Source: an uncultured delta proteobacterium (GTDB lineage Bacteria; Desulfobacterota; WTBG01). From it: a stretch of 64,000 nucleotides of DNA. The notes beneath the pieces are model-generated. The model did no database searches. It was not told where the DNA came from and worked only from the letters and a program-made list of their open reading frames with translations. A program made the translations under genes and the position numbers. The DNA lies in NCBI GenBank assembly GCA_963793865.1, contig CAWCBP010000008.1, positions 288,001-352,000 of the forward strand. Reading direction: 5' to 3'. Shown one piece after another: positions 593-57,766 of this stretch; position 1 is the stretch's first letter, and every line of letters begins with the position of its first letter.

Positions 593-686
593 GCGAGAAT
601 TCTTGCGTAAGGTGCGCACGGTTACGGTTCTTTATATTCTTACCATGCTAAACCGAGAATTTTCCTTTCATCTATGTTTATGACCG

Positions 687-736
687 GTAGGAGCGGCTTT
701 ACGCCGCGAATGCATCGCGCCTGAAGGCGCTCCTAC
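687..736. repeat. GTAG-type REP doublet, family A
   Basis: GTAGGAGCGGCTTTACGCCGCGAATGCATCGCGCCTGAAGGCGCTCCTAC. Near-identical copies at 23956, 42452 and 44966; partial or degenerate copies at 19010, 47275, 47415, 50881 and 62482. Confidence 0.85.
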
Positions 737-757
737 CGAAATTTCAAATATCTTTGG

Positions 758-2614
758 CTAGCTTTTATCATTTGTTGTGCGGGGCAGTTCATAGAGAATG
801 AAAGAGTCGTTTTCATACAGCACCGGCAGTTCAAAGGTTTTCGGCTTTTGGGTCACCACATACTGTGCGCGATGCTTTTTGGCAGCCGCGACAATTGCTT
901 CCGTGGTGAGGGAATTGTAGCCCGCTTCCGCGCCCCGGATGGTTTTCCAGCCCAGGTCCTCCATCCGCGCGAACCATTGTTTCGCGTAGTCATTGTCAAG
1001 ATAGATGATGCTCGATCCCTCCGCCCAGTCCCCCAGGGTTGCCCGCTTTGAATAGATTCCGAAATCATTGAGATAGGGCGGGATGATGAACAGCGCGTCC
1101 TTGGCGGTGTGTTGTTGCGCGAAGCGTTGCACCTCCGCCCAGGGGTCTTTTTCACCTTTGCGGTAGCCATGGTAATAAATATCCGGTCCCCCCCGGTGCC
1201 ATAAGCTGCCGCCATCCAGGAACACGATAAACAGGAGAGCGACAGGTATGAAGGAACGGCGGTCCTGAAGGCGTGGAAAGTTATGTTCGAGCGCGCTGAG
1301 CAGCAGCAGAAACGCGCCGGCGGCGCCCAATCCGGTGCCCACGACCCTGGCGCCGTGGTCAAAGAGACCCTGGCAGATGAGAAAAAGGCTCAGCATGATA
1401 AAAAAAGCGGGGAGGAGATGCCGGTACATCCATGCATAGTGTTTCTCCAGCCTTGATTGCAGAAGAAGCAGCAGGAAAAAGATGTTAAAAAGAAGGAGAT
1501 AGTAGTAGGGGAAGGAATGAATGCAGCCGGTAAGCAGTATCAGGGTCGAGATGATGAGGAACCGTCTCAGGAAACTCCTGTCCCCGACGGTGATGAAGAG
1601 ATGGGCCAGGCAGGGAAGGGATAGTATGATGTAAAGCCAGGAACTCCTCCAAAGGCTCAATTTGATAATGGAAGCAACGGGAACGATTTCAGCGAATATG
1701 GTGCCCACGACGCACAGCACGCCGACAACACCGACAAAGAGTATGAGGTCGCTTTTCTTCCGGTCCGGGGGAAGGGTGGAAAGTCCCATGAGAAAGAGCC
1801 AGAAGTAGAGACCGGCGCGGAAAAAGTAGGAGGCCGGCCAGGTGGAGGGGAAAACGGTGTACCACACAGTCCACAGCACGCCGGTTAACCATTCCGGACC
1901 GTATTCCCAGCTGATGCGCGCATAGTCCAACGATTGGGTAAGCATGGGCAGCGCGGCACAGACGAAGGCGACACTGCACGCCAGCAGGGTTTTTATTCCG
2001 TATTCCCCGGGGTGCCTTAGCCAGTGAGCGAAGAGGAGCGCCAGGAGGAAAAGAGCGCTCATGGGATGAAAATTCCAGGCTGCCCCCATAAAGAAACATG
2101 CCAGGATATAATTTTTTCTGAATATGAGCGCGAGGGAGAGAATGTTGAGCATGATGGCCCACTGCAGCCCGTGGTGGAAAAAATTGATGTAGACGGCAGG
2201 CGAGCCGAGCGTCCACTCGTTAAGTTTGCCGGTGAAAAGCAGTGCGGTCGCGTAGCCGGCCAGGTCAGAGCCGGCCAGCGTTTTGCCGAGATAGAACAGA
2301 ACCGCCGTGGTGAAAAAGAGGCAGATGAGCCACTGTGCCATCGCGAAGGTTTCCAGATCGACATGGCGGAAAAGAGAGGGGCTGAGGTTGTGCATCAGTG
2401 AGAGGCGCGCCTTTTTCCCTTCAACGCTCTGGGTATAAAGCGAGCGGCGGAACAGGCTGGGATCAAGCTTGGCGGCAATGGGATCCACGTAAAGCCCGAC
2501 GGTGAGATAACGGTTCACATGAAAAAAACCGTTCATCAGGAAGGAGTGGGCGGTAATGAACAAAAGAATGAGCGCGGTCCGGACAATGCGGGAAGTGGTG
2601 CGGGTGGAATCCAT
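758..2614 (-). CDS. Polytopic membrane protein, probable GT-C-fold glycosyltransferase-like
   Basis: 618 aa with more than 10 hydrophobic segments and a soluble C-terminal domain; directly downstream of the GT2 gene. Confidence 0.6.
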   Translation of the reverse strand: MDSTRTTSRIVRTALILLFITAHSFLMNGFFHVNRYLTVGLYVDPIAAKLDPSLFRRSLYTQSVEGKKARLSLMHNLSPSLFRHVDLETFAMAQWLICLFFTTAVLFYLGKTLAGSDLAGYATALLFTGKLNEWTLGSPAVYINFFHHGLQWAIMLNILSLALIFRKNYILACFFMGAAWNFHPMSALFLLALLFAHWLRHPGEYGIKTLLACSVAFVCAALPMLTQSLDYARISWEYGPEWLTGVLWTVWYTVFPSTWPASYFFRAGLYFWLFLMGLSTLPPDRKKSDLILFVGVVGVLCVVGTIFAEIVPVASIIKLSLWRSSWLYIILSLPCLAHLFITVGDRSFLRRFLIISTLILLTGCIHSFPYYYLLLFNIFFLLLLLQSRLEKHYAWMYRHLLPAFFIMLSLFLICQGLFDHGARVVGTGLGAAGAFLLLLSALEHNFPRLQDRRSFIPVALLFIVFLDGGSLWHRGGPDIYYHGYRKGEKDPWAEVQRFAQQHTAKDALFIIPPYLNDFGIYSKRATLGDWAEGSSIIYLDNDYAKQWFARMEDLGWKTIRGAEAGYNSLTTEAIVAAAKKHRAQYVVTQKPKTFELPVLYENDSFILYELPRTTNDKS

Positions 2615-2676
2615 AATAAGCTTTTTTTGAACCCCGGGACAATCGATGAAAAAGAGTTGCGTACGGCTGCACCTCG

Positions 2677-3402
2677 TCAGGCGTAGAGTCCTTTCAGGTC
2701 GTTCAGTTTGATCCGCAGCAGATCAAGTCCGCAGGCAATCACGTTCCTGAACACGCGCACCTTGGACCCGCCGGTGTGTTCCCATGCCACCACTATTTCT
2801 TTAATCCGGTGTCCGTATTTCCGCGCCACGAAAATATTTTCAGCGTCAAAACTCCAGTTGTTGAGCCGCTGCCGGGAGAAGATTGCCTGCACGCACCTTT
2901 TCCTGTAACATTTGAAGCCGCAGGTGATATCGGAGACGCCGAGGCGGAGGAGGAAATTTGCCAGCAGGATATATCCATAGCCGAAGAATTTTCTTTTAAA
3001 GGGCGCCTTCTGCTTGAGGGTTCTCCGGGCGATATAGATGTCAATCTCTTCGGAGAACTGGGGGATAAAGCGGTCAATTTCCTCTATGGATGTGGATCCA
3101 TCGGCATCGATGAAGAAAATATACTCGCCGGTGGCCTCAAGCATCCCTTTTCTAATGGCGGCTCCCTTGCCCGCGTTCCGGGCGAGCCGTATAATTTTGT
3201 ATCTGCCTTGCAGCTGCCGGCCGAGCAGGTCTTCCACCATCGCGACGGTCCGATCGGTGCTTCCGTCGTCGACGATCACAATTTCGCTCGAGAAGCCCTT
3301 CTGTCGAACAAACTCGATCACCCGGGGGAGAAAGAGGTGAATTCGCCTTTCCTCGTTGTAAACCGGTATGACAATGCTTATAAAGCAGGGTGTCCCCTTC
3401 AT
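2677..3402 (-). CDS. GT2 polyprenol/dolichyl-phosphate glycosyltransferase (DPG/DPM-synthase-like)
   Basis: Motifs IPVYNEE, VDDGSTD, GKGAA, FIDADGS, DITCGFK, WSFDAE; 241 aa. Confidence 0.9.
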   Translation of the reverse strand: MKGTPCFISIVIPVYNEERRIHLFLPRVIEFVRQKGFSSEIVIVDDGSTDRTVAMVEDLLGRQLQGRYKIIRLARNAGKGAAIRKGMLEATGEYIFFIDADGSTSIEEIDRFIPQFSEEIDIYIARRTLKQKAPFKRKFFGYGYILLANFLLRLGVSDITCGFKCYRKRCVQAIFSRQRLNNWSFDAENIFVARKYGHRIKEIVVAWEHTGGSKVRVFRNVIACGLDLLRIKLNDLKGLYA

Positions 3403-19626: not shown

Positions 19627-19717
19627 GTGCACTAATCGAAAGGGCAAACCCCGGGCAACCGGGGGACGCAAAGCTACGATCCCCTCAGGGGAAGTCGGGT
19701 TGCTGAAATTAGCGCAC
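19627..19717 (+). ncRNA. c-di-GMP-I (GEMM-I) riboswitch aptamer
   Basis: AGGGCAAACC-CCGG-GCAA-CCGG-GGGACGCAAAGC...GGGTTGCTGAA, closed by P1 GTGCACTAAT/ATTAGCGCAC. Confidence 0.93.
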
Positions 19718-40817: not shown

Positions 40818-42407
40818 ATGAAAAAAACACTCCTCCTGATTATTGCCTTCATTGGCCTCCTGGCCCTCTACAAGGCACAGCACGTGAAGCCGGTGGAAGA
40901 TCCCCGGGAATCTCCCATCTTCCAGCAGCGGCTGCAAAGCTCTCTGGATAAATTCCAGGAGAGCGATTATCCTTCCAGGTCCGAGCGAAAGCGGCGCGGC
41001 GATGCCGAAGCCGGGTCCCGGGCATCATCCGGCACGGAACAGCAGGTGAAAGACCTGGTCGCATCGGGCATGTGCGGTCAGGTTACCCTGACCTGGGTGG
41101 AGGAGAAAAAGATTCCCAAAGAGAAGGTTATCATCAAGCGCAGGGAACCGGATGAGGACTATGAACCGCTTGAGGGAACAGGCATCTTCGAGCGGGAGGA
41201 GGAAGGGGGAGTCAGGTACTGGTTTTCAGAAAGCGGACTGCGTGACGGCGTGAAATACGATTACCTGGTTTCGGTGAAGGATGAAGGGGTAAAAGCGCGG
41301 GTCAAAGGTCCTGTTTCCATTACGCTGGCCTGCACCGACCGGGACAGGGAGCTGCTGGCCAAGCGGGACAGGATGCTGAAGGAGTATGCCCAGAAGACGC
41401 CCCGGGAGCGGGATGGTGATCAGGCGGGAAAAGCATTGCCCCCGGCGAAGGCAGCAGGCGGGGATGTAATCGCTTCCGGGAGATGCGGCAGACTGACCCT
41501 GACCTGGGCCGAAACGGGGATGATTGACAAGAGCGGCGTTCAGATAAAAAGAAAATCCGGCAACGGGGATTACACGCTGCTCAAGGAAAGAAAAATCTAT
41601 CATAGAGAAGAGGAAGCAGGCGGGATACGTTACTGGGCCGCGGACGACGGCCTTAATGACGGGGAGAGCTATCAGTATCTTGTTTCATTTAAAGATGGGG
41701 CGGGCAAAGAGGTGGTAAAAGGTCCTGTCTCAATCAGCCTGACCTGCACGGAGAAGGACAGGGAAATGATAGCCGGGCAGGAAAAGATGGTTAAAGAGTA
41801 CTACCGGAAGCAGGCCGGCAGGGACAATTCCGCGCCCGGCGCTCCGGCTGCGGCAGCAGGGGCGTCGCCCTATGAGTTGAGCAAAGAGGTATATACAGTC
41901 GAGGCGGGCAAATCACCCTGGAAAGGAGCACCGGATGCGCCCGTGACCCTGGTGGTGTTTTCTGATTTTGAATGCGTCCACTGCGGTACCCTGGCGGAAT
42001 CTCTGGAAACCATGCTTAAGATATTTCCCGATGACGTAAAAGTCGTCTTTAAAAATTATATTATACCCTACCACAAGAACTCTGAATATGCCGCCATGGC
42101 AGCCCTGGCCGCGGGTGAGCAGGGGAAGTTCTGGGAGATGCACGATCTGCTCTTTAAAAACCAGTCGGCATTGGGGAAGGAGGCTATTACAGGCTTTGCC
42201 GCATCATTGAAACTGGATCTTGAAGCGTTTGAAAAATCCCTGGCAAGCAAGGAACTTAAGGATAAAATTGAACAGGATGGAGCCCAGGGTAAAAACCTGA
42301 ACATTCAAAACCTGCCCACCACCTTTATTAACGGCAGAAGCTTCATGGGCTCACCTCCCGCCGAACGCATAAAAGGCTTCATCGAAGGGATGCTTCAGAA
42401 GAGGTGA
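40818..42407 (+). CDS. Membrane-anchored DsbA-family thiol-disulfide oxidoreductase with two FN3-like repeats
   Basis: GAPDAPVTLVVFSDFECVHC, QGKFWEMHD, LPTTFING; duplicated CGxxTLTW...Y.YLVS.KD...KGPVSI.L.C domain. Confidence 0.88.
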   Translation: MKKTLLLIIAFIGLLALYKAQHVKPVEDPRESPIFQQRLQSSLDKFQESDYPSRSERKRRGDAEAGSRASSGTEQQVKDLVASGMCGQVTLTWVEEKKIPKEKVIIKRREPDEDYEPLEGTGIFEREEEGGVRYWFSESGLRDGVKYDYLVSVKDEGVKARVKGPVSITLACTDRDRELLAKRDRMLKEYAQKTPRERDGDQAGKALPPAKAAGGDVIASGRCGRLTLTWAETGMIDKSGVQIKRKSGNGDYTLLKERKIYHREEEAGGIRYWAADDGLNDGESYQYLVSFKDGAGKEVVKGPVSISLTCTEKDREMIAGQEKMVKEYYRKQAGRDNSAPGAPAAAAGASPYELSKEVYTVEAGKSPWKGAPDAPVTLVVFSDFECVHCGTLAESLETMLKIFPDDVKVVFKNYIIPYHKNSEYAAMAALAAGEQGKFWEMHDLLFKNQSALGKEAITGFAASLKLDLEAFEKSLASKELKDKIEQDGAQGKNLNIQNLPTTFINGRSFMGSPPAERIKGFIEGMLQKR

Positions 42408-49685: not shown

Positions 49686-50804
49686 ATGAAAAGAAACAAA
49701 ACGCTGCTATGCCTGTTAATCATGACATTTTTTATGGGTAGCTTCCTGTTGGTCCCGTATCTGAATGCGGAGGAGCCCAAGATCAATGTTACCATAACCC
49801 CAAAGTCAGAAGCAAAAACACCGAAGGCAGAAACTCCTAAAGCTGTAAGCACAAAGGGCAAAACATCAGGAGAGAATCAGCCCGTCATATCTATCGATGC
49901 GAGGCTATATGACGCCGGAGAAGTATGGGAAGGGGATATGGTAACACACAGCTTTATTGTTAAAAATACGGGAAAAGGTGAGCTGAACATTGCCAATGTC
50001 AAGCCCGGGTGAGGCTGCACCGTAGCCGATTTTGACAAGGCTATCGCCCCCGGTCGGGAAGGCAAAATAACATTAAAGCTCAATACAAGCAGAAGGCAGG
50101 GCAAGCTCACAAAAACAGCTGTGGTCACCTCAAATGATCCGAACACGCCAAGTACCAGCGTAACGCTGGCCTGTTTCATAAAAGAACATATCAGCATTAA
50201 ACCCAACAACCGGTTTAACCTTACGGGGTATGAAGGCGACGAGTTGAGTCAAAAACTGACCATTACCGCGACAGAAGGCCAGGAGTTTGACATAAAGGAA
50301 GTAAAGACAGATCTGACGGATAAGATCAAATATAAGCTGGAAACTGTCCAAAAGGGGAAAGAATACACTCTGGAAGTTACGAGCCTTACCCGGAAAGAAA
50401 GTTTCGTTCGTGGGCAGATAGAGATCAGTACCACCAGCCAGAAGAAACCCCTCATAGTCCTACCGGTCTTTGTTAAGATCCAAAGCGAAGTCGAGGTGAA
50501 GCCAGCTTCCCTCTACTTCGGCAAAATCGATACAGCCGGCGGGCCGGTCAATCCTGAGATCCTTACCAAGTCCGTGGTGATTAAAATGGCCCGGGGGAAG
50601 GAGCTGGGCATCAAGAAGGTCAGTGGAAGCAGCAACTGGATTAAAACAGAGACGAAAACGGATGAAAAGGGCGTCCAGTATACTGTGGCTATTACTCTCA
50701 ACAAGGATAAAATGCCCAGGGGGAAATTTGACGAAAAAGTTGAAATAAAGACCAACAAGAAGGACGAGCCGTTAATAGTAAGCATTAAAGGTGAAGTCAT
50801 GTAG
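49686..50804 (+). CDS. Exported DUF1573-like Ig-domain protein, probable selenoprotein (UGA 50010-50012; 372 aa)
   Basis: ORFs 49686-50012 and 50121-50804 are in one frame; readthrough gives NVKPG-U-GCTVADFDKAIAPGREGKI, matching the family CGCT motif. Confidence 0.88.
50022..50044 (+). promoter_or_regulatory. Putative bacterial SECIS hairpin
   Basis: GTAGCC-GATTTTGACAA-GGCTAT begins 9 nt after the UGA; conserved in the paralogue. Confidence 0.7.
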
Positions 50805-50984
50805 GCTGGGAAGCAAAAACATATCAAAGATTTCTCGCTTCGCTTCGAAATGACAGAATAAAGAGCTCAGCATGACCCCGGTAGGAGCGGCATCAGCCGC
50901 GAATAATATTCACTGCTTGTCATTTCGAAGGAACGTGCGTGACTGAGAAATCTTTCATTTGCGAATTTTAAAAAAGGAGCATTA

Positions 50985-52315: not shown

Positions 52316-54227
52316 ATGCGTTCAGGAGATGACCATACCAAGGCACAAGGCTCCCGGAAAGTGGTTGGCCGGGGGCAGGATTGCCTGCAAAAAAGCGGTT
52401 CCGCGGGGGGAAGGAAAACGGCGGGCGGCAGGTGGTTATGGCTTTTCCTGGTGATCCTTGCCGTTGTGATGCTCAGTTATTCCAACAGTTTAGAGAATCA
52501 GTACATCTTTGATGATTTTCATCTGATACTTTCGAACCCTCAGGTGACCAGCATCGAGAACACCGCACGCGACCTGCTCTCGGGGAAGCTCCCGGCATAC
52601 TATAGGCCGCTTAGAACCATTTCCTATGCTCTGGATTACACTCTCAATAAAAAGTTCTGGTACCGGTTTGCAAGCCATCAATGGACTGACAGGGGGCTTA
52701 TTCCCCTGGGATACCACGTCTCCAATATTTTCTATCATATCCTAACTGCATTGCTCGTATACCTGGTAATTTATAAGTTATCCTTGAATGCCAGGGTCGC
52801 TTTTATAGGCGCAAGCCTCTTTGCCCTCCATCCGGTACACACTGAAAGCGTAGCCTACCTTTCGGGGAGAAGGGATATCCTTTCTACTCTTTTTTACCTC
52901 GCTGGTTTTTATTGCTTCCTCTGTTACAGGCAGGGAAAGCAAATACGCTTCATAGTCGCCGCCTTTCTTATGTATATGCTGAGCTTGGGGAGTAAGGAGA
53001 TGGGGGTTACCCTTCCCGGTCTCTTTCTCGCATATGACCTGGTAAAAAATTTTAATCACAATGAGAGCAGCATGGGCCCCGGCTATTGGAAGGCTCTCTT
53101 TTCAAGCGCGAAGAAAAGTTTTCAGCAGTCTTATTTACTGTATCCGGTTGCTTTCCTGGGGGCTTTAGCCTGCAGCTGCTATGCAGTGTTCATTAAATCA
53201 GCTTCCCGTCAGGATGCGTATTACGGAGATAGCGCGTTTACCACTTTTCTCACAGTTGGAAGAATACTGGTGCATTATATAAAACTCCTTGTCTACCCCA
53301 TCAGGCTCAATGCCGATTACAGCTACAATGCTTTCCCTCTTTCGGTCTCCTTATATGAACCATCAACCTTCCTGTCTGTCCTACTGTTACTGCTGATGGG
53401 GTATCTGACCCTCAAGCTGCTGGTTAATCATAAAATGGCTGCTTTCGGGATTGCCTGGTTTTTTATAACCTTGCTGCCGGTATGTCACATCATTCCCCAC
53501 CATGAGATGATGGCTGAGCACTATCTTTATTTGCCTTCGGTTGGTCTCTGCCTGGTCGCGGCACTGGCCGGTAAGCGCTCCCTGGCGACGGGGAGGTCAC
53601 AACCTTGTTGCTCACAGGCTGTTTTCTCGCCGTAGTTGTGCTCTTTTCATTCCGGATATGGGATAGAAACAGGGATTGGAGCGACAGCCTTACCCTTTAT
53701 GAAAAGACGGTTAAAACAGCGCCTCAGTGCGCCCGCGCGCACAATAATCTCGGCAATGCACTAACTCGTGCGGGAAGAATTGAGGAAGCTGTTTCTGCCT
53801 TTAAACAGGCGCTCGCTATTAAGCCGGATTTTGCAGATGCCCGCAATAATCTCGGGATTGTCTATGCCAGAAGCGGTGATGTGGACGCAGCCATCACCGA
53901 ATATAAGAGAGTGCTGGCCCTTACCCCTAAACATACCAAGGCGATAGCATATAACAATCTTGCCTGGATTTATGCTACATCCATAAACGAGGCACAACGT
54001 GACGGCCGGAGGCAGTTGCATTAGCAATCAAAGCATGTGAGCTAACAGGATTTAAAAATGCCAGCTTTCTGGATACACTGGCCGCTGCGTGTGCTGAGGC
54101 GGGTTATTTCAAGAGTGCCGTGTTCTATCAGAAAAAGGCTCTGGCCATGAGTCAGGAAAAAGAACAAGCAGCTCTCCATGTCCGTCTGCGCCAGTATGAG
54201 TCCGGCCAGGCTTACCGATCCTACTAG
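52316..54227 (+). CDS. TMTC-like (DUF1736 + TPR) protein O-glycosyltransferase (frameshifts near 53590 and 54010)
   Basis: YIFDD, YRP, LHPVHTESV..LSGRRDIL, SKE, AEHYLYLPS; then RNRDW and TPRs, ending YESGQAYRSY*. Confidence 0.82.
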
Positions 54228-54268: not shown

Positions 54269-56569
54269 ATGGCTGGAACCTATTCATTGAGGCGAGCATG
54301 GGAAAAGCGAGCGTCAGAAAAAAAAGCAGGAAGACGTCCAGGGGAGCCAGCAGTTGATAACGGGTCAGCCTCTGAAGCCGGCTGCCTGCAAGCTCCGGCA
54401 CAAGAGGCCGAGTGCAAAAGGAAGTGGTACCTGCTCCTGGCTGGCGTGCTGCTTTTAACCGCTGCCTGCTATGGTAATTCCCTGAACAATACCTTTGTGT
54501 TTGATGATGCCCTGGTGATTGCTGAAAATCCCGGGATACGCGGCATTGAAAATATTCCCCGGCTGCTGGGATTCACAACCGGCCGCACTTCCTACCGGCC
54601 CATCAGGATGGTCTCCTACGCACTGGATTATACGCTTAACAAGAACCTCTGGTGCCAGATCGGGAATTGCCGGGAATCGGATCCCGGGCTCTATCCCCCG
54701 GGATACCATATTGGCAATATTGCCTACCATCTGCTGACGGCATTGCTGGTTTTTCTGGTCGTTTCGCGCCTGGCCGGAAATTTCCGGGTTGCGCTGCTGG
54801 CAGCGGGCATATTTGCCCTCCACCCGGTGCACACCGACAGCGTGACCTATCTCGCGGGCAGGAGGGACATCCTGTTCACCCTGTTTTATCTGGCCGGGTT
54901 TTATTTTTTTCTTCGCTACCGGCAGGAAAAGCGGCTGTCCCTGATGATTTTCGCCTTTATCATGTATATGCTCAGCATGGGGAGCAAGGAAATGGGGGTT
55001 ACTCTCCCCGCGCTCTTTTTGTGCTATGACATGGTTGAAAATTTTTCCCCGCAGGGTATCGGCCCGGGAGGCCGTGCCCGGGAGCTTTTCAAGAGTTTTA
55101 AAAAGAGTGTGGCCCAATCCGCGTATCTCTATGTTCCCCTGTTCATCGGCGCTCTTGCTTTCATCTACTATAAAGTTTTCGTTGCGTCACCATCCTACCA
55201 GAAGGCCTATTACGGGGACAGCGTTTTCATCACCTTTCTCACCGTGGTTAAGATTCTGGCGCACTACATTCAATTGCTGATATATCCCGTCAATCTCATC
55301 GCGGATTATTCCTACAACGCCTTTCCGCTTGCAACTTCATTGTTTGAGCCCGCGGTCCTCTTCTCCCTTGTGCTTCTCGCGGGGGTGGTGTACGCGCTCC
55401 TCCGCTTGTTGGACGGCCACAAGCTGCCGGCATTCGGCGGCGCCTGGTTTTTCCTGACCCTGCTCCCGGTCTGCCATATTTTTCCCCACCACGAGCTGCT
55501 GGCTGAACACTATCTCTATCTGCCCTCGGTGGGTTTCTGCATTGCGGCGGCAGCGCTGTTCGACACCTTCATGAAGGAGAAAAAGTACCGCTTATATGCT
55601 TCAGCCGGTTGTGTCGCCGTCCTCATTATCTTTTCGCTGCGCGTGGTTGACAGAAACAGGGATTGGAAGGACAGCCTTACCCTTTATGAAAAAACCGTCA
55701 CAACCGTACCTGAATGCGCCCGCGCAAACTCCAATCTCTGCGAGGCCTATACCAATGAGGGAAGGCTGGATGAGGCCCTGGCGGCATGCAGGCAGGCGCT
55801 GGCCATCAAGCCGGACCAGATCGAGGCGAACCATAATCTCGGCACCGTGTATGCGCGCAAAGGAATGGCGGAAGAAGCGATTGCCAGCTACAAACAGGCC
55901 CTGGCTTTAAGGCCGCGCTACGCGAAGGCATATTTCAATATCGGTGTGCTGCTTTATCAAAAGGGTGATCTCGAGGGTGCAGTTGATGCGTATAAGCAGG
56001 CGCTTGCCATCAGTCCTTACTATGCTGAAGCGAGAAAAAATCTGGGCATGGCCTACAGCGCAATGGGAAGATTTCAGGAGGCAATTGAGCAGTACAGGTG
56101 GGCAATGGCCATCAAACCGAACTATACCGGCGCCCGGAACAGCCTGGCAGCCGCCTACCTGCAGCAGGGTGCGTTCGATAATGCCATAGCGGAAATGGAA
56201 TTGGCGGTGGCCGGCAACCCCGATGACGCGGACGCGTATTTCAGCCTGGGATATGCCTATTCACAAAAGGGGGATACTGCCAAAGCGGTTGACGCGTATA
56301 AGCGTGCGATTGCCAAGGGCCTGGTGAGGGCGGAAGTCCACAGCAATCTCGGCAATCTCTACCTTCAGGAGGGGAGGCTTGATGAGGCAATCAGTGAATA
56401 CCTGCAGGCGATTTCCATCCAGGATAATTTTGCCGGCGCCCATAATAACCTGGCCATGGCATATTTTAAAAAGCAAGAGTATGCCATGGCCATAAAACAC
56501 TGTGACAGGGCGGCGGAACTCGGTCTCAGCAATCCGGCCCTGCTGAAGGATCTCCTGCCCTATCGCTAG
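54269..56569 (+). CDS. TMTC-like (DUF1736 + about 8 TPR) protein O-glycosyltransferase
   Basis: FVFDD, YRP, LHPVHTDSV..LAGRRDIL, SKE, AEHYLYLPS, RNRDW, then a TPR array. Confidence 0.88.
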   Translation: MAGTYSLRRAWEKRASEKKAGRRPGEPAVDNGSASEAGCLQAPAQEAECKRKWYLLLAGVLLLTAACYGNSLNNTFVFDDALVIAENPGIRGIENIPRLLGFTTGRTSYRPIRMVSYALDYTLNKNLWCQIGNCRESDPGLYPPGYHIGNIAYHLLTALLVFLVVSRLAGNFRVALLAAGIFALHPVHTDSVTYLAGRRDILFTLFYLAGFYFFLRYRQEKRLSLMIFAFIMYMLSMGSKEMGVTLPALFLCYDMVENFSPQGIGPGGRARELFKSFKKSVAQSAYLYVPLFIGALAFIYYKVFVASPSYQKAYYGDSVFITFLTVVKILAHYIQLLIYPVNLIADYSYNAFPLATSLFEPAVLFSLVLLAGVVYALLRLLDGHKLPAFGGAWFFLTLLPVCHIFPHHELLAEHYLYLPSVGFCIAAAALFDTFMKEKKYRLYASAGCVAVLIIFSLRVVDRNRDWKDSLTLYEKTVTTVPECARANSNLCEAYTNEGRLDEALAACRQALAIKPDQIEANHNLGTVYARKGMAEEAIASYKQALALRPRYAKAYFNIGVLLYQKGDLEGAVDAYKQALAISPYYAEARKNLGMAYSAMGRFQEAIEQYRWAMAIKPNYTGARNSLAAAYLQQGAFDNAIAEMELAVAGNPDDADAYFSLGYAYSQKGDTAKAVDAYKRAIAKGLVRAEVHSNLGNLYLQEGRLDEAISEYLQAISIQDNFAGAHNNLAMAYFKKQEYAMAIKHCDRAAELGLSNPALLKDLLPYR

Positions 56570-56694
56570 CAGGCTGTTGAAAAACACCCATCTGCTGCGT
56601 TACGCTCATCCTTCGTCATTGCAGCGTACTCGCATGTACGCCTCATTCCTCAGGATTTCGCGTGCCTTGCATCTGGATGTTTTTGAACAGCCTG
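56570..56694. repeat. 125-bp MITE-like palindromic element between convergent genes
   Basis: Imperfect TIRs CAGGCTGTTGAAAAAC / GTTTTTGAACAGCCTG with internal symmetry; no ORF. Confidence 0.55.
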
Positions 56695-56740
56695 AGAAAA
56701 ACTACTTTTCAACAACCCGCAGGGAAAGACCCCGCCTGCT

Positions 56741-57766
56741 TTAGAGTACTTTGCCCTCGACGATAATAGTTGCCGCGACGGTCTTGCCCTGGCACTGCGT
56801 CTGAACGGTTACCGTTTCCCTGAATTTCTCTTTGGGTAATTTGTCCTTATTCAGCGAGATGGTGATGGTGTACTGTTTTCCCGCCTGATCGGCTTTTACC
56901 TCTGCCGTAATCCACTCCTTGCTTGTCTCGATCTTGTTAATACTCAGATCTTCCGACTGCAGATGGCTGATGACGGTGGTTCTCTTGAGGCTCGATGCGT
57001 CGAAGTTTTCCTTGCCGGTATCGATAACGCCGAAATAAAGATATTCGGGGGTGACCTTTATCTCTTTTTTCAGGTTTCCCAGGACCGATATCGAAACCTC
57101 GGGCTTCTTCTTTGATTCCGTCTTGAGCGCGATTCTTCCCCGGAAGGTATCTTTAATGCCGCCCCGCGTCTTAATCCCAAGGGTGTATTCCTTGTCCTTC
57201 TTCTCATTTTTCAGGGTGTATTCTATTTTATCGTCGATGTTTGAAGAAACCCCGGTTATGTTGAGAGGCTCATCAGTATTGGTGGTAATGCGCAGAACCT
57301 GTTCCAAACTGTCCCCGTAAAATCCGCTGAACATCACCCGGGGGGCCGGCTCTACGCTGATGAAGGGTTTTATCGTACCCCCGATGGAAACCGTGACCTT
57401 GGGCTGTTCGGGATCGTTTGAAAAAATAATCGCGCTCTGTCTTGTCGCTCCCATTTTGCCGGGTGTGCTGATTCTCAGGGTTACTTTGCCCTCCTGACCA
57501 GGAGGAATAGCCTTATCAAAATCGGCTACCGTGCACCCTCACCCCGGTTTGACATTGGTAATGTCGAGCTGGGCCGTGCCGGTATTCCTGATGGTGAAGG
57601 TGTGAATGATATCCTCACCCTCCCATAGCTCTCCGGCGTCATAGTCAGGGGCATCGATGGTGAGCCGGGGCTGGTCTCCTCCCTGCGCGAAGAGGCAGTG
57701 AACAGTAGAAAAGGTAAAGAGCAGGCAAAGCATGGTCAGAAACAGGTTTTTTTTCATAAACAACAT
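56741..57766 (-). CDS. Exported DUF1573-like Ig-domain protein, probable selenoprotein (UGA 57541-57539)
   Basis: ORFs 57539-57805 and 56741-57454 are in one frame; readthrough gives NVKPG-U-GCTVADFDKAIPPGQEGKV; has a signal peptide. Confidence 0.88.
57507..57529 (-). promoter_or_regulatory. Putative bacterial SECIS hairpin
   Basis: GTAGCC-GATTTTGATAA-GGCTAT, 9 nt after the UGA; 22/23 identical to 50022-50044. Confidence 0.7.

Follow-up and report, generated by a model that had tools for sequence, protein, structure and literature searches.

The OS_HP2 family of selenoproteins was first reported from deltaproteobacterial symbionts of Olavius algarvensis (Zhang and Gladyshev 2007, PMC1976440) and Table 2 of that paper lists it together with five other new families of selenoproteins. 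A table of the GOS study (PMC2398784) equates it with pfam07610 and gives the motif UxC, two sequences with selenocysteine (Sec) and 354 homologues with cysteine (Cys), and tables of two reviews (PMC9312934 and PMC13188914) carry the entry 'DUF1573 domain-containing protein, UGC'. The legend to Fig. 5 of PMC1976440 refers to drawings of the Sec insertion sequence (SECIS) for the other five new families, OS_HP2 not being among those it names. Here we describe two genes of this family in a stretch of 64,000 nucleotides, hereafter the window, from an uncultured delta proteobacterium of the Desulfobacterota (assembly GCA_963793865.1, contig CAWCBP010000008.1, positions 288,001 to 352,000). Named gene B and paralogue A, they each contain a single in-frame TGA and very probably encode exported OS_HP2/DUF1573 selenoproteins, in which, judging from sequence comparison, the UGA would be read as Sec by means of SelB and the hairpins that follow it. 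The family and its use of Sec are already described, and A and B are further members of it; the only element that is possibly new is the tandem-hairpin layout of the SECIS region.

The SECIS element of Escherichia coli fdhF has a minimal stem-loop of 17 nt located 11 nt after the UGA, with a GGUC loop, essential residues G23 and U24 and a bulged U17. A consensus for bacterial elements, as set out in the legend to Fig. 2 of PMC13188914, comprises a loop of 3-9 nt with G in the first two loop positions, a stem of 4-16 bp, a distance of 16-37 nt from the UGA to the apical loop and a minimum free energy of -7.5 kcal/mol or lower. The authors of this model describe a subset of SECIS elements as lying outside it (PMC13188914).

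Two OS_HP2 genes and their shared UGA

The coordinates of both genes and of their principal elements are collected in Table 1. With Cys written for Sec, the products of B and A score 118.1 and 115.1 bits, respectively, against NF041425, the 'OS_HP2 family (seleno)protein' model, for which the curated cut-off is 100, and gene B scores 82.4 bits against PF07610 (DUF1573; cut-off 26.1). When the genome was searched with NF041425, with the stop read through and no residue placed at the TGA, the two scores were 94.8 and 95.8 bits, slightly below the cut-off. Like the described members of the family, the two proteins have a U-x-C motif (here U-G-C) and homologues in which Sec and Cys alternate; what differs from the family as described is the presence of four copies in a single genome. 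The ATG of gene B, at 57766, is preceded at a distance of 4 nt by a GGAGAA motif. Genes A and B are about 7.4 kb apart and flank a block of TMTC-like/TPR genes, and a relative from the same genus (genome G006, contig C35) likewise has two OS_HP2 copies, which lie on opposite strands with about 7.4 kb between them.

Table 1. Positions of the OS_HP2 genes, their UGA codons and hairpins, and of related loci used for comparison (window numbering unless a contig is named)
Feature	Position	Strand	Description
Gene B	56741..57766	minus	OS_HP2/DUF1573-family candidate selenoprotein, 341 codons, one frame, single TGA
UGA of gene B	57539..57541	minus	codon 76, first residue of the U-G-C motif
Hairpin 1, gene B	57507..57529	minus	GUAGCC / 11-nt loop GAUUUUGAUAA / GGCUAU
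Hairpin 2, gene B	57490..57505	minus	CCUCCU / GGUC / AGGAGG, over the codons for P-P-G-Q-E-G
Paralogue A	49686..50804	plus	OS_HP2-family candidate selenoprotein, 372 codons, one in-frame TGA
UGA of paralogue A	50010..50012	plus	
Hairpin 1, paralogue A	50022..50044	plus	GUAGCC / GAUUUUGACAA / GGCUAU
Hairpin 2, paralogue A	50046..50063	plus	GCCCCC / GGUC / GGG-AA-GGC, 2-nt bulge (RNAfold)
Further OS_HP2 copy (C), L026	G000 contig C2, 37751-37960		
Further OS_HP2 copy (D), L027	G000 contig C6, 5144-5415		
Reference loci for SECIS: two mvhD, three fdhA, selD			L157, L158, L160, L161, L164, L019

The proteins are clearly diverged (41.5% identity over 313 residues, E 5e-79 by tblastn; 142 of 334 aligned residues identical with MAFFT), and their TGA codons fall in the same alignment column, within the segment K-P-G-U-G-C-T-V-A-D-F-D-K-A-I. 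An earlier, sequence-only reading of this DNA had drawn attention to such a diverged paralogue on the opposite strand with TGA at the identical position, to a 23-nt hairpin that is identical at 22 of 23 positions and begins 9 nt after the TGA in both genes, and to synonymous differences in the codons around it; each of these observations is borne out. The codon pairs AAG CCC and AAA CCG, GGC and GGG, ACC and ACG, and ATC and ATT are all present, on both flanks. As DNA, the hairpin (hairpin 1) is GTAGCC-GATTTTGA[C/T]AA-GGCTAT, with a 6-bp stem and an 11-nt loop, and among 980 sliding windows of 23 nt in the codon alignment of A and B it occupies the only one with at least 22 identities.

The genome, an assembly of 3.85 Mb in 14 contigs, encodes the machinery for Sec incorporation. 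A tRNA-Sec is found at 77.4 bits (ARAGORN calls it SeC, anticodon tca), and profile matches to selB (370 bits), selA (577 bits) and selD (303 bits) are all above their cut-offs. The selD gene carries an in-frame TGA of its own, and further genes with one TGA include two mvhD and at least three fdhA. TGA also terminates 19 of the 42 frames of at least 250 codons in the window, where it is the commonest stop, so that TGA is not reassigned genome-wide.

Conservation of the UGA extends well beyond this pair. All four OS_HP2 loci of the genome have TGA at the same codon. Copies C and D have both hairpins as well, each with a one-base frame break: the break in C falls about 30 codons past the TGA, within an A/G run, and its hairpin 1 has an A.C mismatch, whereas D has lost one base in a C/G run right before the TGA and has a compensatory G-C pair in hairpin 1. 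At the level of the order, the family occurs in 10 of 11 genomes, with TGA in every match of at least 47 bits. In a sample of the phylum, 152 of 401 genomes have a match at E <= 1e-10, and both TGA and Cys forms are found; a hand count of the above-cut-off rows, among the matches listed, gave 29 of 38 with one TGA and 9 of 38 with none.

For a broader comparison, 46 loci from the order and phylum searches were combined with 40 more TGA rows and 40 more rows without a stop, the added rows being picked from the phylum search by rank with genomes of the same class first. A hidden Markov model (HMM) of domain 1 placed the codon at 134 places, corresponding to 127 distinct segments of 138 nt; three HMM hits gave no codon-centred segment, namely L044 (which contains N), L027 and L028 (an N-terminal piece of copy D). 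According to the HMM together with the C-x-C pattern, the codon is TGA in 81 of the segments and TGC or TGT in 46. An earlier, motif-filtered set held 75 Sec and 23 Cys forms. A broad Sec/Cys comparison of OS_HP2 homologues is now available.

Contigs covering parts of the stretch were also found in three metagenome runs from different studies; a single run carries the label RNA-Seq, and it is probably DNA. A contig of the independent run X2 spans 49920-50035 with a single difference, at 49992, leaving the TGA of paralogue A and the start of its hairpin unchanged. Another X2 contig, spanning about 57488-57587 as estimated from end distances, differs at 57530, 57533, 57536, 57545, 57548 and 57556. 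These six are third-codon positions on both sides of the TGA of gene B, and among the differences listed none touches that TGA or the interval 57488-57529, which holds both hairpins.

Sec-specific hairpins downstream of the UGA

The sequence-only reading had allowed that hairpin 1 might prove to be equally conserved in homologues with a Cys codon. It is not, and the interpretation offered there is supported by the family-wide sequence comparison: a hairpin of -5 kcal/mol or better is found in the hairpin-1 zone of 66 of the 81 Sec forms and in only 8 of the 46 Cys forms. For the best bulge-free hairpin at offsets 6-45 from the UGA, the medians are -7.9 kcal/mol for Sec and -4.0 kcal/mol for Cys (Mann-Whitney p = 1.5e-9, with the reservation that the sequences are phylogenetically related and such p-values therefore overstate the evidence), and -6 kcal/mol or better is reached by 65/81 and 13/46, respectively. 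The difference runs in the opposite direction in the control zones, with Sec and Cys medians of -3.8 and -5.6 kcal/mol upstream and of -1.6 and -3.3 kcal/mol at 54-93. The Cys segments are richer in GC (0.583 compared with 0.539), which makes their weaker hairpins the more striking. Stems in the Sec forms start at offsets 11-17. In the set of 75 and 23 forms, comparison of each sequence with its own synonymous recodings gave a mean z of -1.21 for Sec and -0.07 for Cys in this first zone, and no difference upstream.

Immediately beyond hairpin 1 lies a second hairpin (hairpin 2), which the sequence-only reading had overlooked. In gene B it begins 1 nt past hairpin 1 and has a folding energy of -8.9 kcal/mol, counting a seventh, U-G pair; in paralogue A the bulge-free part is just 3 bp. 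All 15 order-level sequences have the same GGUC loop, even at the U, which occupies the 4-fold-degenerate site of a Gly codon. In the zone 34-66 the median hairpin energy is -8.4 kcal/mol for Sec and -5.5 kcal/mol for Cys forms (p = 3.5e-6). Matching for the peptide P-P-G-G-x-G narrows this to -8.4 and -6.6 kcal/mol (p = 0.002), an effect that survives in part, so that the peptide forces some of the hairpin-2 signal and not all of it. Hairpin 2 is present in 68/81 Sec and 23/46 Cys forms, and both hairpins at -5 kcal/mol or better in 57/81 and 6/46. The gap between the two is 0-4 nt in 39 of the 45 Sec forms that could be scored for both, and most apparent cases of a single hairpin have a bulged second one in the RNAfold structure. 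The whole region of 66 nt folds at -19 to -20 kcal/mol.

Covariation across homologues, which had been proposed as a check, gave an answer that depends on the set considered. In the order-level set of 15, pairing is seen in 97.8% of the cells of helix 1 and in 90.6% of those of the two helices together, compared with 29-61% in slid controls. Pair 21-39 is A-U in eight sequences, G-C in six and mismatched in one, copy C. The compensatory change, from GUA..GCU (A-U) to GUG..GCC or GUG..GUC (G-C), is thus seen in 6 of 15 sequences, and the route from GUA/GCU to GUG/GCC is purely synonymous. The consensus of all 75 Sec forms behaved differently, lying near that of shuffled sequences, as detailed below; the hairpin shifts its register between clades, which accounts for the weakness of a single consensus, and hairpins were scored sequence by sequence for this reason. 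A lower stem, pairing GAGGG (which includes the UGA) with UCCUC after hairpin 1, was considered and rejected, its partners showing no covariation across the family by eye.

Taken as a mechanism, these features suggest that the UGA at codon 76 of gene B would be decoded by Sec-tRNA(Sec) delivered by SelB, which in turn would be recruited by mRNA structure directly downstream of the UGA, presumably hairpin 1 (nt +9 to +31) and hairpin 2 (nt +33 to +48). A number of observations weigh against this reading. Taken by themselves, the A and B genes use the same codon at identical residues in 6/7 cases within the hairpin and 65/132 elsewhere (Fisher p = 0.065), and the single-sequence folding z-scores against dinucleotide shuffles (-0.6 to -1.8) are not significant. 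The pair alone is therefore merely suggestive, and the wider family was needed to decide. For one consensus structure of the 75 Sec forms, 66.9% of cells are paired compared with 62.7% in shuffles, and its 12 doubly changed pairs are reached by 99 of 500 shuffles; in the order-level set double changes are confined to one pair per helix, and 'further pair types' are fewer than in shuffles. To these must be added the relatedness of the sequences already mentioned, the incomplete fit of both hairpins to the published SECIS consensus, and the state of selA, which is found in two frames, split near codon 55-60 (G000 contig C1, 969976-971350). A real break there would mean that the cell could not make Sec. 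The split is likely an assembly error, because the same assembly has other single-base frame breaks, some within homopolymer runs, that affect a TMTC-like gene as well as OS_HP2 copies C and D.

The codon comparison and the weak folding scores are what might be expected if hairpin conservation merely reflected the conserved peptide V-A-D-F-D-K-A-I together with codon bias, with no function for the RNA and the UGA suppressed in some other way. We regard this explanation as very improbable. The hairpin is missing from homologues of the Cys type whose peptides are similar, and conversely hairpins remain in Sec forms with wholly different peptides, such as A-L-A-S-A-K-E, which is encoded by a stem-loop CUUUGGC-UUCU-GCCAAAG. 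Sec forms fold better than their own synonymous recodings where Cys forms do not, and a peptide constraint gives no account of a compensatory change that is purely synonymous. The strong evidence for the selection at the RNA level that had been read from the A/B pair comes from the comparison of Sec and Cys forms across the family; by itself, the synonymous-site argument from the two paralogues is not significant.

The frame breaks in copies C and D, selA and the TMTC-like gene could be taken as a sign that the TGA itself is a sequencing error or a nonsense mutation in a pseudogene. Alternatively, translation could really stop at the TGA, giving a product of 75 residues, with a second protein made from the sequence downstream, where an ATG-started open reading frame (ORF) of 237 codons (56741-57454, table 11) is available. 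Both forms of this explanation are effectively refuted. TGA stands at the same codon in the 81 distinct homologous segments, from many genomes, and in independent metagenome contigs; its counterpart in the alignment is the conserved Cys of a C-x-C motif, and the curated family model is named for the alternation of Sec and Cys. The AlphaFold2 model of B, in which domain 1 is one beta-sandwich across the UGA (block pLDDT 90-97 over residues 31-130), counts against two separate products. If the recoding is genuine, as we consider very probable, automatic annotation that halts at TGA would split such genes, of which there are four in this genome.

Fit to SECIS models and a possible tandem arrangement

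Neither hairpin fully matches the bacterial consensus. The stem of hairpin 1 (6-7 bp) fits, the loop of 11 nt does not, the spacing from the UGA (15 nt) is one below the range and the energy is borderline, at -7.2 to -7.8 kcal/mol in B and -6.7 to -7.3 kcal/mol in A. Its loop begins with G-A in both genes, and a G is found there in only 22 of 80 Sec forms. The description of this hairpin as SECIS-like thus holds for its Sec-specificity and fails, against the consensus, on loop size and spacing. Hairpin 2 of gene B fits in its 4-nt loop, 6-7-bp stem and energy, and its spacing of 39 nt is two above the range; the leading G of its loop is found in 53 of 81 Sec forms, although Gly codons force a G there. 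With a scan that allowed no bulges and is hence stricter than bSECISearch, a hairpin satisfying all four constraints was found in only 3 of 81 Sec forms. When spacing was relaxed to 42 nt, a compliant hairpin appeared in 38/81 Sec and 6/46 Cys forms, and in all except three of these the spacing was 38-41 nt.

The mvhD, fdhA and selD hairpins of the same genome form a useful reference set for the SelB of this organism. Their loops are GGUCU in the three fdhA genes, AGUCU and AGGAU in mvhD and GGGAC in selD, and these six elements have loops of 3-5 nt, spacings of 19-23 nt and stems that start at offsets 13-19. The OS_HP2 genes resemble them in having a stem-loop directly 3' of the UGA and inside the coding frame. 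In position it is hairpin 1 that is similar, with a stem starting at offset 12; in sequence it is hairpin 2, which has the GGUC loop of fdhA and the CCUCC/GGAGG stem of selD. The difference, from these elements and from the consensus alike, is the presence of two tandem hairpins instead of one. As in E. coli fdhF, a hairpin is found about 10 nt after the UGA, and the GGUC loop reappears in hairpin 2; it is, however, about 20 nt further from the UGA and behind an intervening hairpin. Rfam at gathering thresholds, applied to the whole window, has nothing at either hairpin, its sole match being a c-di-GMP riboswitch. A covariance model built from five same-genome SECIS hairpins and run against the four OS_HP2 loci and selD recovered neither of the OS_HP2 hairpins, nor the held-out selD control, and is therefore too weak to decide between the hairpins.

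One tentative possibility, which we would not favour at present, is a tandem or split SECIS, in which a loop-unconstrained hairpin would sit at the mRNA entrance of the ribosome and a second hairpin, 38-41 nt from the UGA, would present the G[G/U] loop read by SelB. Hairpin 1 would then be a folded spacer, its folding restoring a near-usual effective distance between UGA and loop. The loop and stem of hairpin 2 are in keeping with this, the stem being like that of selD, as are the 11-nt loop of hairpin 1, unlike those of the other SECIS elements of the genome, and the variation of its first three letters within the order (GAU, AGC, AGU, GGU, GCC). Hairpin 2 of gene B also agrees with the consensus in loop, stem, leading G[G/U] and energy and misses on spacing only (39 nt against a maximum of 37), and the excess of compliant hairpins in Sec over Cys forms under relaxed spacing, the invariance of the U of GGUC at a degenerate site and the regular, non-overlapping succession of the two hairpins are further points in its favour. 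Set against these, hairpin 1 shows a greater specificity for Sec forms than hairpin 2 does, and it is located where other SECIS stems begin. The peptide P-P-G-G-x-G accounts for much of hairpin 2, as the matched medians indicate, and among the A-type paralogues the pairing of hairpin 2 is imperfect (83.3% of cells, compared with 97.8% for hairpin 1). If true, a tandem SECIS would explain why the OS_HP2 family largely escapes the standard model, and the layout, if confirmed, would widen the search model for bacterial selenoprotein genes.

Protein architecture and genomic surroundings

The product of gene B begins with a signal peptide (approximately residues 1-28), which is followed by three beta-sandwich domains of the Ig-like type at about 33-133, 136-233 and 236-340. 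The AlphaFold2 model has a mean pLDDT of 90.4 and a pTM of 0.68, with an N-terminal helix at residues 3-20, and a hydrophobic, signal-like segment is present at the start of all 22 aligned full-length homologues. Sec76 lies in a turn between the predicted strands 67-74 and 78-83. In the 22 aligned proteins the invariant residues include E49, H55, N61, G75, U76, G77 and D118, and C78 is nearly invariant; from the strand register of the model, H55 should lie beside the U-G-C turn. An orthologue of B from the same genus (L040, G006 contig C35, 8453-8737; 62% identity), which scores 89.9 bits on NF041425 and is thus below the cut-off, has U-G-S in place of U-G-C, implying that the resolving Cys is not strictly required.

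A sequence-profile search of the PDB found no meaningful relative, the best match (E 0.15) being to designed proteins. Foldseek matches in the PDB were to tandem Ig-like/ASH repeats only, from ciliary central-apparatus proteins, an RTX adhesin, cadherins and an S-layer protein, and included the uncharacterised Porphyromonas protein 2qsv; no enzyme fold was among them. OS_HP2 is one of the few exported selenoproteins without a thioredoxin fold, and a confident three-domain model of it now exists.

Short C-X-C motifs can be redox-active, as in the C-G-C peptides that mimic protein disulfide isomerase, and mammalian thioredoxin reductase employs a Cys-Sec pair. The product of B is similar in that two chalcogen residues are separated by one Gly, in a turn of an exported protein; it differs in its tandem Ig-like/ASH-type beta-sandwich, which is not a thioredoxin fold, and in the occurrence of U-G-S in one orthologue. 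Our best guess, which we infer from the motif and the predicted fold, is that the product is an extracytoplasmic redox or chalcogen/metal-binding module, in which U-G-C, held in a tight beta-turn of the first domain outside the cytoplasm, would form a redox-active selenenylsulfide or a chalcogen/metal-binding site.

The surroundings of the genes name no common partner: among 65 flanking ORFs at 27 homologous loci, Pfam revealed none that is shared, with a HAD hydrolase found beside five, a divergent polysaccharide deacetylase beside three and MauE with rhodanese beside one. In the window the two genes lie among others for envelope proteins, namely TMTC-like/TPR proteins, PQQ propellers and a DsbA-like protein. 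The last of these, a protein of 529 residues with a C-terminal DsbA-like thioredoxin domain, is encoded at 40818-42407, about 7 kb upstream of paralogue A, and is a possible candidate for a redox partner.

Within the block between A and B, two overlapping ORFs in different frames (52316-53635 and 53605-54024) together encode a TMTC/PMT-like membrane protein that ends in a TPR tail, and this split protein is a paralogue of that encoded at 54269-56569. A dispersed repeat of about 150 nt lies at 56570-56740, in the intergenic stretch that separates the stop codons of two converging genes, the TPR/PMT gene and gene B. It has at least 41 matches at 84-100% identity in the genome, its own place included (40 of 107 candidates were scored), and no Rfam family matches it at gathering thresholds. 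In the three metagenome runs it reaches a depth of 600-3300, where neighbouring sequence has about 5-15, and loose ends are seen at 56566-56570 and 56694-56709; a second bin of high depth is at 50696-50969. The repeat looks like an element of the miniature inverted-repeat transposable element (MITE) or repetitive extragenic palindromic (REP) kind that is widespread in freshwater, wetland and wastewater samples. Elsewhere in the window, the riboswitch matched by Rfam is a c-di-GMP-I-GGC aptamer at 19634-19708, which scores 61 bits against a gathering score of 59.

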